DNA of 33,324 bases from a virus (lineage: Duplodnaviria; Heunggongvirae; Uroviricota; Caudoviricetes), in IMG/VR virus record IMGVR_UViG_2711768068_000019. One strand, 5' to 3'. This document shows, piece by piece, positions 8,567-33,324 of the stretch. The translations under genes and the position numbers were made by a program. The first letter of the stretch is position 1. Each line of letters opens with the position of its first letter. Under the pieces are notes generated by a model. That model did no database searches, had not been told where the DNA came from, and saw only the letters and a program-made list of their open reading frames with translations.

Positions 8567-9160
8567 TCAATTATGTAAATCTTTTGTTTTATGTTCTTTA
8601 GCGTGTTGTGATAATAAATAGCTATAGCGTTTAAGCAAAATATTAGAAAGATTAAGCTCATTCATGAAGTGTTCTTCTAATAAGTAACCATCAATATCAA
8701 CTTTAATATCATTACCACTTTTCATCTTCTGTAACGTAGATTTTACACGCTCCAGCAGGATGCTTTGCTCATGGTAATAGTCCATAAGAAGAGTAACATC
8801 CTCTTTATCAAGCTTACTTAATTCGCCGAAGTAGGATTTAAACACTTTATCAGTCTGGTTTAATGCAATCTGTAAGCGAGGTCCCCCTAATGATTTGACA
8901 TTAATGGCAAAAGGCTCGCCAACAAAATGCTCCGAATTTTCGTCAAAGCCAATATGTCTCGTTTTATCAAGAAAAGTGAGAGCGCGATGGTTATTAGCGA
9001 TTTCATATGCAAACATTGTTCTGATACTGTCTCTCTCAGCCTCCATGTTTATATCATCACGATGATTTGTATAAAATATATTTCCAACAAAGAGAACCAT
9101 AGCAAGAATCACTGAACTTGCCTCCCAGTTAATATTTTTTAATCGTCGCTTAGTAAACAT
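8567..9160 (-). CDS. Hypothetical membrane-anchored protein, AT-rich moron at the P2 Z/fun position
   Basis: 197-aa ORF with ATG start and a strong Shine-Dalgarno (AAGGTG, 4-nt spacer). One N-terminal hydrophobic helix (SSVILAMVLFVGNIFYT) followed by a soluble domain. Markedly lower GC than the flanking G and FI genes. No family recognised. Confidence 0.65.
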   Translation of the reverse strand: MFTKRRLKNINWEASSVILAMVLFVGNIFYTNHRDDINMEAERDSIRTMFAYEIANNHRALTFLDKTRHIGFDENSEHFVGEPFAINVKSLGGPRLQIALNQTDKVFKSYFGELSKLDKEDVTLLMDYYHEQSILLERVKSTLQKMKSGNDIKVDIDGYLLEEHFMNELNLSNILLKRYSYLLSQHAKEHKTKDLHN

Positions 9161-9910: not shown

Positions 9911-12166
9911 TTAAACGCTCGCTACATTATACCATGTGCCATTTATATACTTTTGAACGGGTCTGTAATAAACACCCGCAATATTATCGGCGGAGTTGGA
10001 ACCTGTATCCTGAACATTTATACCAGACAATACATGACCTGAAGGGCACTGGAAGTTCCATGTTTGCCAGTTGTTCACACCATAATATTGCTGTGAGCCA
10101 AGCCGAACATCTTTCACATATCTGGAATCAATGTTACCCCAGCTGCTTGGTTGTATCTGACCGTTTACAGCAAATGTCACCGAGTTATCTGTATTTCGCT
10201 GACTATAGAAATGCCAGCCTGAATCATCACCAAGCTCTGCAACAGTTGGTCTTGACGAATTTCCCCACAAGTTAAATGATGCATTATGGGCAGCGGTATT
10301 TGCACTTGAAAGTGTGAATAACTTACTTTCCCCAGCTTGAATACCCTTTAATGATATTGCTGAGCCATTTCTAAAGCGGAATACATGCACACCATTAGCA
10401 TAAGCATCCAGCACCCCATCACCATTTTGTTTAAACCCAGTATCGTTATCTCCTAAAACTATTGAATTCCCCCCCAGGGCATTAGCCGTTCCAATCCCCA
10501 GATTTCCGCTAAAAATGGCATTAATACCGAATATTGAGTGAGAACAATAAAACCCTCGCCCATTGTTAAAATCCAGAATGGCTTGTGCTTTCGTGCTTTC
10601 TGTCGCGGGATTAGTTGCTCCCCACTTATATGTTGTTTGACCGACGGTATAATCCTGAGTTGGAACAATAACCGTTAGCCCTTCTTCGGCAAAAACTCGC
10701 ACAGGAAAAGCCCTGCCTTCAACGTAAAAAACGCTGCATACATCATCTTCTTTCAGGCTTGTTACAATGGAATGGATTGCGCGCTCATTAGTCTGATATG
10801 TCGAAAAATAACCTGCTGCATATGAACCACGATCAGTCCAACCTCCGGGCATTACCATTCCATTAAATTCGCAGTTATTCATTGCGTAATCACCACCGGC
10901 AGATGTGGTTGTAATAACCACTCTGGAAGCCAGTTCGCCAGTGCTACCAGTGGAACGCCGGAAAATAACTGGATACCACTTTCCACCAACAGCATTAGAC
11001 GGCGCGTTAAATACGTACTGCCGCATTCCTTTTTTCTTATCCACCTCGCCTTTGCTGTAAACATTAATGTTACTCAGGAAGCGATCTTTATCAGGAATAT
11101 CCGCGCCGTTCTGATTTTTCTGCAATGCGCCAGAAGCCTGATTTACCGTTTCCTGCAAACCGAGATATTCGATAACGGCGGCAACGGTCGATTTAGCCAG
11201 AATATCCCGCCCGACTTTTGTCAGGGTTGCCAGGCTGGCAACATCATTCCCCGTAAAATACGGAAACCTGTCTGCCGCAGTAGCAAGCCCCGCCAGCGCC
11301 GTCAGGGTAGCATCTTTCGGTTGCTTACCCGCAAGCGCGTTAGTCATGGTGGTCGCAAAATTCGGGTCGTTGCCCAGCGCCGCCGCCAGCTCGTTCAGCG
11401 TGTTCAGTGCGTCAGGTGACGAATCTACAAGTGCGGCAATCGCGGCCATAACGAAAGCCGTGCTTGCGATTTGGGTATTATTCGTTCCCTGTCGTGCAGT
11501 TGGTGTTGTTGGCGTTCCGGTCAGTGCCGGGCTGTTTAATGGCGCTTTCTTGTTCGTTTCATCCATTACCGTCTTAACGGCTTTTGGCGTTGCGGCCAGC
11601 ATTTCAGACGTGCTGTTGGTCGCACTGCTTAACTGAGTAAAACCTTTTGCGGTCAGCGAGGCGTCCGGGTGACGTCGTGACTGTTCGTGCTCTGCAATTT
11701 TGTCATCAACGTAATCCTGCGTCGCCATCACCGTTGTGGTGTCAATGGTCAGCTCCACTGAGGCCACACTGCTGACGATGATGACCATGCGGCAGGTCTG
11801 CGAACGCCCTGAACCTTCGGCAAGAGCTGGCTTATAACTTTCGGCCATGTTCGCCACGGCAATTAACGTTCCCGCATCATCGTACAGGCCAAGCTCACGC
11901 ATCCAGAAACCGCCCACCTCCGGCGGAATAACCAGCTCTGCGATAATATAATTACTGTTTCGTTTGTCCTGACTGATTTTGTTCAGCGCATGTCGCCAGA
12001 CTTCGTGGATAAGCCCGGTCTGTCCGGCATCCGGGACAGGCAATTTACCACCGCCATCCCCGACGGCCATCGTGGTAATGTTGACCTTCCGCCCTCCCGG
12101 TGCGGTTGCCGCTGCCAGCTTTGCTGCACCGGCAGTGGTGATAACGGTTTTGAATTTTGTGCTCAT
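9911..12166 (-). CDS. H: Tail fiber protein H (mosaic; C-terminal receptor-binding region differs in composition)
   Basis: 751-aa ORF; the N-terminal part is recognised as P2 gpH. The C-terminal roughly 40% (about 9911..10900) is lower in GC and rich in Gly/Asn/Ser/Trp/Tyr. It is longer than the roughly 669 aa I recall for P2 H. Confidence 0.85.
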
Positions 12167-23866: not shown

Positions 23867-24008
23867 ACACCCCGCCATCACGCCCTCACACGCTCACCAC
23901 CGCACAAAACAGCCCGCATACACACCAACGCCCCGGCGAACAATCTAAACGCCATCACAACGCGCTCAGACGCTGAAAAAATAAAATCAGCACCACCGCC
24001 AGCGCGCA

Positions 24009-24168: not shown

Positions 24169-24708
24169 TCAATCATCATGATGAGAGAACCTAGCATTTA
24201 CTATTCTTGAGTGAAGATTGTTTGCAAATGATAAGTTGCTTAAAATAACACTAAACACACACTTTATTTGTAACCAGCACATAAAATAAACAAAGGTGAT
24301 TCCAATCATTCTAATAAGATCAGAATACACCACTGAACTCGATAGCACAGAGCCTATTGATTTAAACAGATAAACAAACAAAATCGAAAGCATTACTACT
24401 GCTGAAGTAATTACAACGTAAATTAGCTTTTCAATTCGAGGTGCATCTTTCGTATTCTTTATGTAATCAACATCATCATTGACAATGCTTGCAATTGCAT
24501 TCGGATATAAAAAACCAATCCATAATCCAACTATGGTAAAAATTGCAGCAGATATGTTTTGCAAAACACCCAGTATATCTTTTATATCACTATAGTTAAC
24601 ATAAGCTTTCAGCCAATAGGAGGCCACAGCAATTAGAAATAGAATTAACAAATTCCATTTCCATTGTATTATCAATGCCTTTAAATCCTTACTTGTTTGA
24701 GGTGACAT
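24169..24708 (-). CDS. Hypothetical small integral membrane protein (4 predicted transmembrane helices), second gene of an AT-rich cargo operon
   Basis: 179-aa ORF. Its ATG directly follows the upstream TAA (TAAATG) and is preceded by GGAGG within the upstream gene's 3' end. Four hydrophobic stretches of about 17-23 residues. About 30% GC by eye. Confidence 0.7.
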   Translation of the reverse strand: MSPQTSKDLKALIIQWKWNLLILFLIAVASYWLKAYVNYSDIKDILGVLQNISAAIFTIVGLWIGFLYPNAIASIVNDDVDYIKNTKDAPRIEKLIYVVITSAVVMLSILFVYLFKSIGSVLSSSVVYSDLIRMIGITFVYFMCWLQIKCVFSVILSNLSFANNLHSRIVNARFSHHDD

Positions 24709-25836
24709 TTATGCCTCCGCCGTTTTTAAAGATTTTTCTTCCACCTCTTCATTATAAAGGATTGTTTGGAGTAAATCATCACGAACAGCCTTTATTTCAT
24801 GAAGGAGTTTTTCTGGAGAGAAATGCTCATCTCCGGTAGAATCGCTGACAATTAATGCAGTTCTCGCCATATATTTTTTTAACCATAATGGGCGAGATGA
24901 ATCTTTAAGAACAAAGCCAACATCAACCCAGTCAACATCATCTACATTTCTATCCAATAGTTGTTTTATCTCCTCTTCCGAAGGAGCACCATCTACTCGA
25001 ACCTCAATTTTTTTAGGTTTTGTAAACTTGGTTTGTTCTGTTCCCAAGAAATCCGATAGTACATTACTCACCAGACGTAATAACGGTTGCCGGGTATCCT
25101 CAACTTTTGCGACCGTAGTATCACGAATAATTGTCTGAACAATTTTATCTCGTACATCAAGAATATTCGTCCCTGGTTTATTAACCTTCGTCACTTCAGC
25201 CTTAAATTTAAAAACGCAATTACACTTGCGTCCATTTTCATCTACATGCTTGAAAATTGTTTTAGAAATAAGAATGTCATCTTCCGAACATGAAGAACGA
25301 GCTCTAGTAAATGAGGTAGTATCCTTTTCCCTACCAAAATCACCGTGATTTACTACAAAATTAAAAATATAATTGCTTAACCTCGGTGTATCTGCACCTG
25401 AATGAGGAAATATAATGGATGCAATCTTGTTATATTCAGGAATTATCCAATAATAACATGGCTCAACCCAAATATAGTCTTTTCCATTCGTTTCTGTCTT
25501 TACTGTATCATTTTCTGTAGCACCAACAGGTGCGTTTTTTTTAACAGCGTGCAAACGTCCCTTCGCGGAACCTAATGCGCGATACATTACCATCACCCGA
25601 TCTTTTGTATCGGGATCGACAGCCACTCCTCGTGAGTAAGTTCTGGCTCTTAGCGGATGAGTTCCCGTATCCCACGGAATTGACTCCTCAACGCTTTTGT
25701 CATCAAGCCAAGCCTGCAACGCGTCAAAGATCTCATCAAGTGTTCCGAATTTATGCTCTAATTCTTCTGCGTTTTTCTTCAGTCTGTAAAAACCACAAGC
25801 CTTGATATCAAAGAACGTAACGATTCCAGTTTCCAT
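24709..25836 (-). CDS. Hypothetical protein (375 aa), first gene of an AT-rich cargo operon at the P2 tin/old position
   Basis: ORF with the ATG at 25834-25836 (METGIVTFFDIKACGFYRLKK...); the track ORF begins 21 codons upstream at a TTG. No transmembrane segment and no Walker A motif. Low GC. No family recognised. Confidence 0.7.
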   Translation of the reverse strand: METGIVTFFDIKACGFYRLKKNAEELEHKFGTLDEIFDALQAWLDDKSVEESIPWDTGTHPLRARTYSRGVAVDPDTKDRVMVMYRALGSAKGRLHAVKKNAPVGATENDTVKTETNGKDYIWVEPCYYWIIPEYNKIASIIFPHSGADTPRLSNYIFNFVVNHGDFGREKDTTSFTRARSSCSEDDILISKTIFKHVDENGRKCNCVFKFKAEVTKVNKPGTNILDVRDKIVQTIIRDTTVAKVEDTRQPLLRLVSNVLSDFLGTEQTKFTKPKKIEVRVDGAPSEEEIKQLLDRNVDDVDWVDVGFVLKDSSRPLWLKKYMARTALIVSDSTGDEHFSPEKLLHEIKAVRDDLLQTILYNEEVEEKSLKTAEA

Positions 25837-25993
25837 CACTTTCCCTACGAAGCGGTAAAAAATCCCCAGAACAATAAGGGATCTATGCAAAAGGTTCAAT
25901 GCTCAAGATTATCACCTAGTATGCTAACGCCTCCGCAGATGAGTTGTTCACCCCGCCAACCCTGAAAACAAGTTTCACGACTGGCGGCGCTCT

Positions 25994-30245: not shown

Positions 30246-30746
30246 TTAATGCAGATATTGCTCTGGTTTTACCGACGTCAGAATTGTCGGTGCATATTCA
30301 AACAGACTGAATAATTCACGTAATGCACGGAATAAAGCATCACGCCAGTAACATGACTCTTCATTAATTCGCCAGTATGGCTGGTTAAATTCTTTTTCTG
30401 TCAGTCGTGCGTGCATAAATAAAGTACGGCGCTGACTGACAGTTAAAAAGCTAATATATGCATACTCACTTGCACCGACCTGACGGCGTTTTGAGAATGC
30501 CCCACGCAATTCATCAATTGCACAAACCAGCCGTTCACGTTCGACGTCGTTCATTTCTTCAAAACGCATCGTTGCATGACGCTGTTTTAACTGCGCATGG
30601 AAGCAAACCGTTAGCCGTTCGCGCTCCATCATCTGATTATAATAATCACATGTCTCCTGCCAGCGAGGGACGGCAAGATGCTTACCAATTATCCGGCGCA
30701 TAGTTGCTGGTTGTTTTTCAACGAGATTGAGCGTCATCACTGTCAT
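30246..30746 (-). CDS. B: Replication protein B (helicase-loader-like)
   Basis: 166-aa product from the ATG at 30744-30746 (MTVMTLNLVEKQP...), recognised as P2 gpB. Confidence 0.9.
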   Translation of the reverse strand: MTVMTLNLVEKQPATMRRIIGKHLAVPRWQETCDYYNQMMERERLTVCFHAQLKQRHATMRFEEMNDVERERLVCAIDELRGAFSKRRQVGASEYAYISFLTVSQRRTLFMHARLTEKEFNQPYWRINEESCYWRDALFRALRELFSLFEYAPTILTSVKPEQYLH

Positions 30747-30913
30747 TTCCATACCCTCCGGCTTTTCAGAAAGGTCAGAGCCTTTTTTAACGGACTCTGT
30801 TTTTTGGTGCGGATAATGATTCCCTTACGCCCCTTACCGTGGGTGATGGTGAAGTCAATCGCCCTGGGGCTTTCGTTACGCAGTAACTGAGCAATACAAC
30901 GAGGCTCATTCAT
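30743..30913 (-). CDS. Small basic hypothetical protein (P2 orf78 position)
   Basis: 56-aa product from the ATG at 30911-30913 with a strong Shine-Dalgarno (AAGGAG, 6-nt spacer); the track ORF begins at a GTG 8 codons upstream. Sits between cox and B. Confidence 0.55.
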   Translation of the reverse strand: MNEPRCIAQLLRNESPRAIDFTITHGKGRKGIIIRTKKQSPLKKALTFLKSRRVWK

Positions 30914-30923
30914 ACGGTTCTCC

Positions 30924-31199
30924 TTAACGTGGTTCACCGAGACCTAACCACATCAACCAGCCGTCACGAATCTCTTTAGGGCGGCTTTCATAAGCCAGTT
31001 TTAGTCCGTTATTCCATGCCGGAAGGTATACCCAATATTCACCTGCACGACCTGAAGCTGATTGTGGATCGGTCATATCAATTACAGGCAGCTTTCCTTT
31101 ATCGATCATCCGACGAACCGCTCCTGTCGATTTTCCTATTAGTTTTGCGAACTCCTGATAAGGAATCGCATCAGTCATGAGTGTTACTTGCTTGCTCAT
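30924..31199 (-). CDS. cox: Cox (excisionase / repressor of Pc)
   Basis: 91-aa ORF, ATG start, first gene of the early operon and divergent from C; recognised as P2 Cox. Confidence 0.9.
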   Translation of the reverse strand: MSKQVTLMTDAIPYQEFAKLIGKSTGAVRRMIDKGKLPVIDMTDPQSASGRAGEYWVYLPAWNNGLKLAYESRPKEIRDGWLMWLGLGEPR

Positions 31200-31236
31200 G
31201 TCGTCCTCTAGCCCTCATGAATTGCGTTTAATGTCT

Positions 31237-31242
31237 TATAAT
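31237..31242 (+). promoter_or_regulatory. Candidate -10 element of the repressor promoter Pc
   Basis: Perfect TATAAT about 72 nt upstream of the C start; no good -35 match at 17 nt, as expected for a weak promoter. Would be face-to-face with the proposed Pe. Confidence 0.35.
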
Positions 31243-31280
31243 GCCTTTTAGTGCCCACATCCAAGCACTAAACAATCTAC

Positions 31281-31310
31281 ATCTAAACTAAATACTATTG
31301 AGATCTAAAC
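31281..31310. promoter_or_regulatory. Candidate C repressor operators O1/O2 (8-bp direct repeats, 22-bp periodicity)
   Basis: ATCTAAAC occurs at about 31281..31288 and 31303..31310, flanking the proposed Pe -10. This matches the P2 arrangement of two 8-bp direct repeats around the Pe -10, as I recall it. Confidence 0.5.
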
Positions 31311-31320
31311 ACCATGTCAA
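31292..31320 (-). promoter_or_regulatory. Candidate early promoter Pe (drives cox-B-A)
   Basis: Minus strand reads TTGACA (overlapping the C start codon), a 17-nt spacer, then TAGTAT. Confidence 0.5.
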
Positions 31321-31613
31321 ACACGATAAGCGAGAAGATAGTCTTAATGCGAAAATCAGAGTATTTGAGCAGACAACAACTTGCTGATTTAACAGGGGTT
31401 CCGTATGGCACGCTGAGTTACTATGAAAGTGGTCGTTCAACACCTCCAACAGATGTCATGATGAACATCCTGCAGACCCCACAATTCACCAAATACACTT
31501 TATGGTTCATGACCAATCAGATCGCTCCTGAGTCCGGGCAAATTGCGCCCGCTCTCGCACACTTTGGGCAAAACGAAACAACGTCGCCCCACTCCGGTCA
31601 AAAGACTGGTTAA
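31314..31613 (+). CDS. C: Immunity repressor C
   Basis: 99-aa ORF, ATG start (MSNTISEKIVLMRKSEYLSRQQLADLTGVPYGTLSYYESG...), with a helix-turn-helix region; length and position match P2 C. Confidence 0.9.
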   Translation: MSNTISEKIVLMRKSEYLSRQQLADLTGVPYGTLSYYESGRSTPPTDVMMNILQTPQFTKYTLWFMTNQIAPESGQIAPALAHFGQNETTSPHSGQKTG

Positions 31614-31728
31614 CAATTCATCGTGAATATATTCATCACAAGTGCCTACTATTGGTGGCTAAATTTCAGCCACCACGAAAAAAGCGATTAGTAGTCGCAA
31701 AAAAACACACCACTCGGAGGGTTTTCTG

Positions 31729-32742
31729 ATGGCAATCAAAAAACTCGATGATGGTCGATATGAAGTGGACATCCGCCCTACTGGACGTAATGGAAAACGC
31801 ATCCGTAGGAAGTTTGATAAGAAAAGCGAAGCTGTCGCTTTCGAGAAATACACGTTGTACAACCACCACAATAAAGAATGGCTATCAAAACCAACAGACA
31901 AGCGACGTCTGTCGGAGCTGACACAGATCTGGTGGGATTTAAAGGGTAAACACGAAGAGCATGGGAAATCTAATCTTGGAAAAATTGAAATCTTCACAAA
32001 AATAACGAATGACCCATGCGCATTTCAAATTACGAAATCGCTTATCAGCCAGTACTGCGCCACCCGAAGAAGTCAGGGTATTAAACCTTCGAGTATCAAT
32101 CGTGATTTAACATGTATTAGCGGCATGTTTACAGCCCTGATTGAAGCGGAGTTATTCTTTGGTGAGCACCCTATCAGAGGGACAAAAAGGCTTAAGGAGG
32201 AAAAACCAGACACAGGCTATCTCACGCAGGAAGAAATTGCCTTACTGCTTGCTGCTCTTGACGGCGACAACAAAAAGATTGCGATTCTTTGCCTGAGTAC
32301 TGGAGCACGTTGGGGAGAAGCAGCTCGTTTGAAAGCAGAAAATATCATCCATAACCGCGTCACGTTTGTTAAAACGAAAACAAACAAACCACGCACCGTC
32401 CCGATCTCAGAGGCTGTTGCCAAAATGATCGCGGATAACAAACGAGGTTTTTTATTCCCTGATGCTGATTACCCTCGCTTCAGACGAACAATGAAAGCAA
32501 TAAAACCGGATTTGCCAATGGGGCAAGCTACACATGCACTAAGGCACAGCTTTGCCACTCATTTCATGATTAATGGAGGAAGTATTATCACGCTACAACG
32601 GATACTAGGTCACACGCGGATTGAGCAAACTATGGTTTACGCTCATTTTGCGCCAGAGTACCTTCAGGACGCCATTTCTCTTAATCCGCTAAGAGGTGGT
32701 ACTGAGGTCGAGAGTGTCCACACAGTGTCCACAGTAGAGTAA
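31729..32742 (+). CDS. int: Tyrosine integrase
   Basis: 337-aa ORF preceded by GGAGG; the C-terminal region has the conserved R...HxxR...Y catalytic residues (ARWGEAARL, HALRHSFAT, VYAHF). Adjacent to the att core. Confidence 0.9.
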   Translation: MAIKKLDDGRYEVDIRPTGRNGKRIRRKFDKKSEAVAFEKYTLYNHHNKEWLSKPTDKRRLSELTQIWWDLKGKHEEHGKSNLGKIEIFTKITNDPCAFQITKSLISQYCATRRSQGIKPSSINRDLTCISGMFTALIEAELFFGEHPIRGTKRLKEEKPDTGYLTQEEIALLLAALDGDNKKIAILCLSTGARWGEAARLKAENIIHNRVTFVKTKTNKPRTVPISEAVAKMIADNKRGFLFPDADYPRFRRTMKAIKPDLPMGQATHALRHSFATHFMINGGSIITLQRILGHTRIEQTMVYAHFAPEYLQDAISLNPLRGGTEVESVHTVSTVE

Positions 32743-32821: not shown

Positions 32822-32849
32822 AATCTCCCTTACACGGGCTTATTTTTTA
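32822..32849. repeat. Prophage attachment site core, int-proximal junction (attL in P2 convention)
   Basis: Exact 28-bp copy of the repeat at 1507..1534, about 80 nt downstream of the int stop. Confidence 0.85.
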
Positions 32850-33006: not shown

Positions 33007-33324
33007 TCACTCTCCACATTTGAATGTCAGACGAGCGACGCCATGTAATCCTGCACCTTCTGTCTTCAGGTCAACTATCTGCATTTTTTTGCCCTGAGTA
33101 ACACAGAAATGGGCTGCATCATTTTTTACTATATTTTCTGCACCAGATATTCTGCCCCTGGCTAAAGAAGCTTCGGCTTCGGTGTAGTATTGGTTATCGA
33201 GTTTACGCTGAATATTACTTTTATATGCAAGACCAAATTTACCGATACTTGTCTCATCATTATGCACAGCACAACCAGACACAATAAAAATACTAATTAA
33301 TGATATAGCAGCTATCTTTTTCAT
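33007..33324 (-). CDS. yegR: Lipoprotein YegR (host chromosomal gene)
   Basis: 105-aa ORF whose ATG is the last three bases of the window. Signal peptide with a lipobox (IFIVSG-C); I recognise the sequence as E. coli YegR, the neighbour of yegQ. Confidence 0.8.
   Translation of the reverse strand: MKKIAAISLISIFIVSGCAVHNDETSIGKFGLAYKSNIQRKLDNQYYTEAEASLARGRISGAENIVKNDAAHFCVTQGKKMQIVDLKTEGAGLHGVARLTFKCGE

Follow-up and report, generated by a model that had tools for sequence, protein, structure and literature searches.

The transcriptional switch of bacteriophage P2 is the closest described system to the locus studied here. In P2, the early promoter Pe and the promoter Pc of the lysogenic operon are convergent and their transcripts overlap by approximately 35 nt (PMC1904263, PMC1904268, PMC2995052). 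The immunity repressor C acts on two 8-bp half-sites, O1 and O2, which flank the -10 hexamer of Pe, and point mutations in both half-sites relieve repression (PMC1904268). The O1 half-site, GTTTAGAT, is the reverse complement of ATCTAAAC, and the centre-to-centre distance of 22 nt between O1 and O2 equals two helical turns (PMC1904263). P2 C is unable to bind a single half-site, and changing O1 from GTTTAGAT to ATCCGAGT leads to loss of repression in vivo and of C binding in vitro (PMC1904263). C also bends the DNA, and its footprint covers O1, O2 and the spacer between them as well as around 12 nt past O2, reaching to about +16 of Pe (PMC1904263). The structure of P2 C was determined at 1.8 Å and led to a model in which two symmetric C dimers bind cooperatively, with one recognition helix on the repeat and the other on flanking DNA, and bend the DNA by a total of approximately 90° (PMC2995052); the stoichiometry and geometry of C on O1 and O2 are still a model in the literature (PMC2995052). 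Primer extension has placed the start of Pe about 7 nt downstream of its -10 hexamer, whilst a Pc primer located 155 nt from the cox start codon yielded a cDNA of about 105 nt (PMC1904263). The second regulator, Cox, recognises at least six cox-boxes, 10-11 bases apart, which overlap the -10 and -35 of Pc, and it has been proposed that a Cox filament nucleates on the boxes over the Pc -10/-35 and spreads towards Pe at high concentration (PMC3936717). Crystal and NMR structures are available for C (2XCJ, 2L49) and a structure for Cox (4LHF).

The locus described here lies near one end of a stretch of 33,324 nucleotides from a virus of the Caudoviricetes (IMG/VR record IMGVR_UViG_2711768068_000019), referred to as the window throughout. 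A sequence-only reading of this DNA had recognised a P2-type switch with face-to-face Pe and Pc and 8-bp operators, and the comparison with phage records bears this out in the strictest sense. A megablast search with positions 30900-31730 against 50,697 phage records returned a match to P2 (AF063097.1 / NC_001895.1) that is 100% identical over 831 bp; Peduovirus P22H1 is likewise 100% identical over the same 831 bp and several other peduoviruses are 99.9% identical. In an ungapped comparison with AF063097.1, zero mismatches were found from 30712 to 32210, a block of 1,499 bp that runs from the end of B through orf78, cox, the cox-C spacer and C and 482 bp into int. Outside this block the two sequences diverge, with 41 mismatches in 730 bp (5.6%) on its left and 10 mismatches in 639 bp (1.6%) on its right. 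The elements annotated in the P2 GenBank record between nt 25884 and 25987, i.e. Pc -35 and -10, O2, Pe -10, O1 and Pe -35, map one-to-one onto elements of the window. We are, on the strength of this identity, almost certain that the region represents P2's own transcriptional switch, with the immunity type of that phage. The same region is also common in E. coli: of 5,426 complete genomes, 404 contain at least 80% of a 511-bp query (31150-31660), for the most part at an identity of 99% or higher. The switch is already fully characterised, with published work on its mechanism, on the sites of binding and of transcription start and on the structures of its proteins, and the locus offers no new biology in this respect. 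The binding, reporter and start-site experiments that the sequence-only reading had proposed exist in the literature for this exact sequence: binding of C to O1 and O2 by EMSA, SPR and footprinting has been reported, as have operator mutants, reporter fusions and primer-extension starts, and the mapped sites agree with the hexamers. Its proposed alignment with P2 and WPhi, which likewise is in print, shows an identical switch in P2 and, in WPhi, a switch that can be aligned just around the Pe -35 and the C start. The comparison of operators by which it hoped to predict heteroimmunity gives a trivial answer, P2 immunity.

The spacer between cox and C (31200-31313) is 114 bp long, as had been read from the sequence, and has a GC content of 38%. 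On the minus strand, the -35 hexamer of Pe, TTGACA, occupies 31315-31320 (P2 annotation 25884-25889 in AF063097.1) and its -10 hexamer, TAGTAT, occupies 31292-31297 (P2 annotation 25907-25912). The two hexamers are 17 nt apart and score 10/12 against the sigma-70 consensus; the same consensus scan of 30900-31750 detected no promoter-like site besides Pe. The -35 hexamer overlaps the start codon of C by 2 nt (the TG of the ATG at 31314-31316), an arrangement that is likewise kept in WPhi, L-413C and pro483, where TTGACA overlaps the ATG of C. The O1 half-site lies at 31303-31310 (minus strand; P2 annotation 25894-25901) and the O2 half-site at 31281-31288 (minus strand; 'O2 repressor binding site' in the P2 annotation, 25916-25923), both reading GTTTAGAT in the direction of Pe. 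On the strand as given, this amounts to ATCTAAAC twice in direct orientation at 31281-31288 and 31303-31310, 22 bp from start to start and bracketing the Pe -10; one further exact copy of ATCTAAAC occurs in the whole window, at 23943. The leftward promoter at 31320-31292 with its -35 over the C start codon, the pair of repeats 22 bp apart flanking the -10 and the rightward TATAAT (31237-31242) had all been named in the earlier reading and are all present. Arithmetic from the published primer extension would place the start of Pe at about 31285, within O2.

The opposing promoter, Pc, is the promoter of the lysogenic operon C-int. On the plus strand, its -10 hexamer TATAAT lies at 31237-31242 (P2 annotation 25962-25967) and its deposited -35 hexamer ATGAAT at 31217-31222 (P2 annotation 25982-25987 of AF063097.1). 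This -35 matches the consensus poorly, and its distance of just 14 nt to the -10 is unusual for sigma-70; a scan for a better -35 at the canonical spacing of 16-18 nt found sequences with 2/6 matches at best (TCATGA, CTCATG). The exact position of the Pc -35 is uncertain, and Pc might in effect work without a -35 element. The weak -35 match fits the description of Pc as the weaker promoter (PMC1904263). Arithmetic from the published primer extension puts the likely start of Pc at about 31250, 7-8 nt past TATAAT, and the overlap between transcripts calculated from the two starts so derived is approximately 36 nt, roughly 31250-31285, in agreement with the published overlap. A scan with the published cox-box consensus TTAAA(G/C)NC(A/C) (PMC3936717) identified a cluster of three boxes on the minus strand over Pc (31223-31250), spaced 9-10 bp: TTAAACGCA at 31231-31223 with 9/9 matches, TATAAGACA at 31240-31232 with 7/9 and TAAAAGGCA at 31250-31242 with 8/9. 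These boxes span the Pc -10 and the stretch directly upstream of it, and abut the annotated -35 (31217-31222). Weaker boxes beyond these three were indistinguishable from background in the scan.

The genes around the spacer are those of P2. The cox ORF (30924-31199, minus strand, 91 aa in the ORF list) encodes the Pc repressor and excision directionality factor, and stands first in the early (Pe) operon; its DNA is 100% identical to P2 cox, its product belongs to the Pfam family Phage_Cox (E=5.5e-48) and aligns with PDB 4LHF over residues 1-91, the full length of the protein. The C ORF (31314-31613, plus strand, 99 aa in the ORF list) encodes the P2 immunity repressor, an HTH dimer that binds direct repeats; its DNA is 100% identical to P2 C, its product belongs to Pfam HTH_3 and matches PDB 2XCJ and 2L49 over residues 1-99, again the full length. 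Divergently transcribed, cox and C stand on either side of the spacer. The second gene of the Pc operon according to the P2 annotation, int (31729-32742, plus strand, 337 aa), encodes a protein with the Pfam domains Phage_integrase and Int_N. The gene order, B-orf78-cox / C-int-att, is the same as in P2, and C is served by a single promoter with int downstream of it, as in P2. The ORF list of the window holds no cII-like ORF; cox is followed by orf78 and B instead.

We describe the operation of the switch by joining two kinds of evidence: the elements and their identity with P2 come from the present comparison, and binding, repression and transcription starts were established in earlier publications that used the identical sequence. 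The activity of the present prophage is something that we infer. Two convergent promoters face each other across the cox-C spacer, of which Pe, on the minus strand, would be the strong one and drive cox-orf78-B and the remaining early lytic operon, and Pc, on the plus strand, would be the weak one and drive C-int. In the lysogen, dimers of the HTH repressor C would bind O1 and O2 cooperatively, bracketing the Pe -10, bend the DNA and switch Pe off, and the shut-off of Pe would also relieve its interference with Pc. During lytic growth, Cox multimers would nucleate on the cox-boxes over the Pc -10/-35 and wrap the DNA, which would stop the synthesis of C and Int; at high concentration, Cox would dampen Pe too.

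The spacer also holds features that are not part of the P2 annotation of the switch. A perfect 8-nt inverted repeat, TTTAGTGC/GCACTAAA, with a loop of 10 nt (31247-31254 / 31265-31272) falls in the zone where the transcripts of Pe and Pc overlap. Folded as RNA, it forms a hairpin in both orientations, at -7.6 kcal/mol (z = -6.3) for the plus strand and at -13 kcal/mol (z = -3.4) for the Pe leader, and an inverted repeat of this kind arose in 1.9% of shuffled sequences. At the start of the WPhi Pe leader stands a comparable inverted repeat of 9 nt. In the right arm, 15 bp downstream of O2, lies a degenerate operator-like copy, CACTAAAC (31266-31273), with 6/8 matches to ATCTAAAC, and its position matches that of the additional C protection reported past O2 (PMC1904263). 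It is conceivable, though we consider it rather unlikely, that the switch holds elements beyond O1/O2, Pe and Pc, either CACTAAAC as a functional 'O3' or a hairpin in the 5' leader. If the former were true, 'O3' would explain the C footprint downstream of O2 and the autoregulation of Pc by C; if the latter, the leader hairpin would modulate the stability of the Pe and Pc transcripts or the interference between them.

Beyond the switch, alignment of the window with P2 yields blocks of 92-98% identity, and these take in the structural, replication and regulatory genes. The exception is a stretch within the tail-fibre gene H (about 10098-11142), approximately 72% identical or unaligned. H itself extends over 9911-12166 on the minus strand and it is its C-terminal part that diverges from P2; this divergent tip suggests a receptor specificity other than that of P2. 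A 28-bp direct repeat, AATCTCCCTTACACGGGCTTATTTTTTA, which holds the exact 27-bp P2 attP core, is present at 1507-1534 and 32822-32849 as attL/attR and delimits a prophage of 31,343 bp. Apparently, this is a complete P2-like prophage of 31.3 kb between yegQ and yegR. On one side stands a 453-aa ORF (1-1362) that, from its position, we take to be yegQ; on the other, a 105-aa ORF (33007-33324, minus strand) is yegR according to the E. coli genome annotation. The yegQ-yegR locus is presumably also the site of the cryptic P2 remnant (ogrK/yegZ) in E. coli K-12 and thereby the P2 site locH. P2 old/tin, fun(Z) and orf30 are absent from the prophage. The comparison argues that the last common ancestor with P2 is more recent for the immunity module than for the remaining prophage, which is a recombinational mosaic, because the module has 0 mismatches in 1,499 bp and the rest of the prophage diverges by 2-8%. 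A cassette without a single difference (orf78-cox-C and the 5' half of int), with neighbours that differ by 1.6-5.6%, illustrates how P2-like phages exchange immunity regions as modules.

Several observations concern other parts of the window or other genomes. A two-gene cassette at 24169-25899 (minus strand) replaces P2 old/tin next to cos and encodes a 179-aa predicted membrane protein and a protein of approximately 375-396 aa. PADLOC matched these proteins to the candidate defence system PDC-M18B/PDC-M18A (E=3e-16 and 4e-38), whilst Pfam returned nothing significant for the cassette, with DUF6161 sub-threshold (E=0.008). Megablast found no match to the cassette in the 5,426 complete E. coli genomes or the 50,697 phage records, and tblastn found just 26-28% identical phage relatives, in a Providencia phage and a Vibrio phage. 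Defence hotspots in P2 are known and include the old/tin position (PMC9122126). We regard the cassette as a rare PDC-M18-like candidate defence pair, and as the most interesting item in the window, outside the switch. At the position of P2 fun(Z), the second variable hotspot, stands an ORF of 197 aa (8567-9160, minus strand) whose product has a hydrophobic N-terminal segment and no Pfam or PADLOC match. In E. coli CM2 (NZ_CP114891.1, 578534-578589), an isolated 56-bp segment is identical to 31276-31331 of the window, i.e. Pe with O1/O2. It is located upstream of a fusion of 708 aa from the Dam methyltransferase family, and remnants of lambda origin are close by. This segment is probably an engineered construct that uses the P2 Pe/C part; as it looks like a construct, we rejected the reading of it as a natural second copy.

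The practical value of these results is one of annotation: the prophage carries the immunity module of P2 itself. The repressor and O1/O2 are identical to those of P2 and, because of this identity, we predict that the prophage has P2 immunity and should be homoimmune with P2, and heteroimmunity is expected towards WPhi, P2 Hy dis, L-413C-type phages and 186. Carrying this module, it should therefore exclude P2-immune phages. P2 is not known to be SOS-inducible or to have a repressor that undergoes RecA cleavage. Judging by the biology of P2 and P4 and by the cox annotation of the P2 record, the Cox protein should also be able to activate P4-type satellites.

It is fair to ask whether the elements of the switch could match the consensus by chance, the spacer being rich in AT, or belong to a decayed remnant with a nonfunctional switch. 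The stretch 31200-31330 was shuffled 20,000 times with its dinucleotide composition preserved; an exact 8-mer direct repeat with a spacing of 8-40 bp arose in 5.5% of the shuffles, a promoter of at least 10/12 in 9.3%, and the repeat and the promoter jointly in 0.6%. The motifs by themselves are thus just moderately improbable: each arises singly in 5-9% of shuffles, the spacer has the low GC content given above, and the pattern is statistically suggestive, not compelling. As to decay, a cryptic P2 remnant presumably sits at this same locus in E. coli K-12. Against both stands the exact identity to experimentally validated sites (PMC1904263), along with intact ORFs for C, cox and int (C and cox identical to those of P2, int identical over its first 482 bp), two intact att cores and a prophage that aligns with all essential P2 gene blocks. 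We accept the motifs as real because they are exactly identical to the experimentally characterised P2 switch; chance occurrence was rejected solely for this identity, and a chance pattern or a dead remnant is very improbable. The mosaic nature of the prophage raises a separate question. With the rest of the prophage just 92-98% identical to P2, and with P2-like phages known to swap immunity modules and to fall into several immunity classes (PMC3448106, PMC2995052), the switch could have belonged to another class, resembling that of WPhi, P2 Hy dis or L-413C, with an operator specificity of its own and heteroimmunity to P2. The nucleotide identity of C, O1, O2, Pe, Pc and cox with P2 makes this even less probable than a chance pattern, and it was rejected on that identity and on the lack of ATCTAAAC in the relatives compared. 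The general architecture, i.e. convergent promoters and an excisionase that doubles as a repressor of the lysogenic promoter, is common with phage 186 (PMC7498355), which allows one to consider a 186-type switch with CI, Apl and CII, where the CI operators at pR are inverted repeats and establishment has its own promoter, pE. In the window, however, the operators are direct and not inverted repeats, no cII follows cox, where orf78 and B stand as in P2, and the 99-aa repressor has no detectable similarity to the unrelated 192-aa CI of 186 (E=32); a 186-type switch was rejected on this gene content and lack of similarity to CI, and its probability is negligible. The identification of the locus as the switch of P2 itself is the reading that we retain.

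This identification is sharpened by how the locus stands among described relatives. A tblastn search with C hit 140 phage records, of which 10 were at least 99% identical and the rest were below 80%. The switches of WPhi, L-413C, pro483 and Klebsiella phage 3LV2017 have each their own repeats or none detectable. WPhi (AJ245959.1 / AY135739.1) resembles the present locus in having divergent C and cox, convergent Pe and Pc, and direct-repeat half-sites that flank the Pe -10 (PMC1904263). It differs in its C protein, which is 46% identical to the present one, in its spacer of 152 bp, which aligns just around the Pe -35 and the C start, and in its operators, which as published are 10-bp GTCACCAATA half-sites 34 bp apart, with ATCTAAAC absent; conversely, the motif GTCACCAATA of the WPhi class is absent from the switch of the window. 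WPhi C can bind a single half-site, unlike P2 C (PMC1904263), and the two phages are heteroimmune. The C protein of L-413C is 43% identical and its switch has CCTATATAG repeats 34 bp apart, that of pro483 is 50.5% identical and that of 3LV2017 is 61% identical, and ATCTAAAC is lacking in all three switches. P2 Hy dis, according to its published description, is alike in that its C is small, with 63% identity to P2 C, and its half-sites are 8-bp direct repeats, but these lie 26 bp from each other, on either side of the Pe -35 instead of the -10 (PMC1904268). Phage 186 (U32222.1) also has face-to-face lytic and lysogenic promoters, pR and pL; its Apl protein, like Cox, combines the roles of excisionase and repressor and recognises direct repeats spaced by one helical turn (PMC7498355). 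This phage differs in having three CI sites at pR as well as the flanking sites FL and FR, and a CII and pE establishment pathway that is missing in P2 (PMC1904263), and ATCTAAAC does not occur in its pR-pL region. The switch of P2 stands apart from all of these, as its promoters, half-sites, cox-boxes and proteins are all identical to those of the present locus and the surrounding prophage alone differs.
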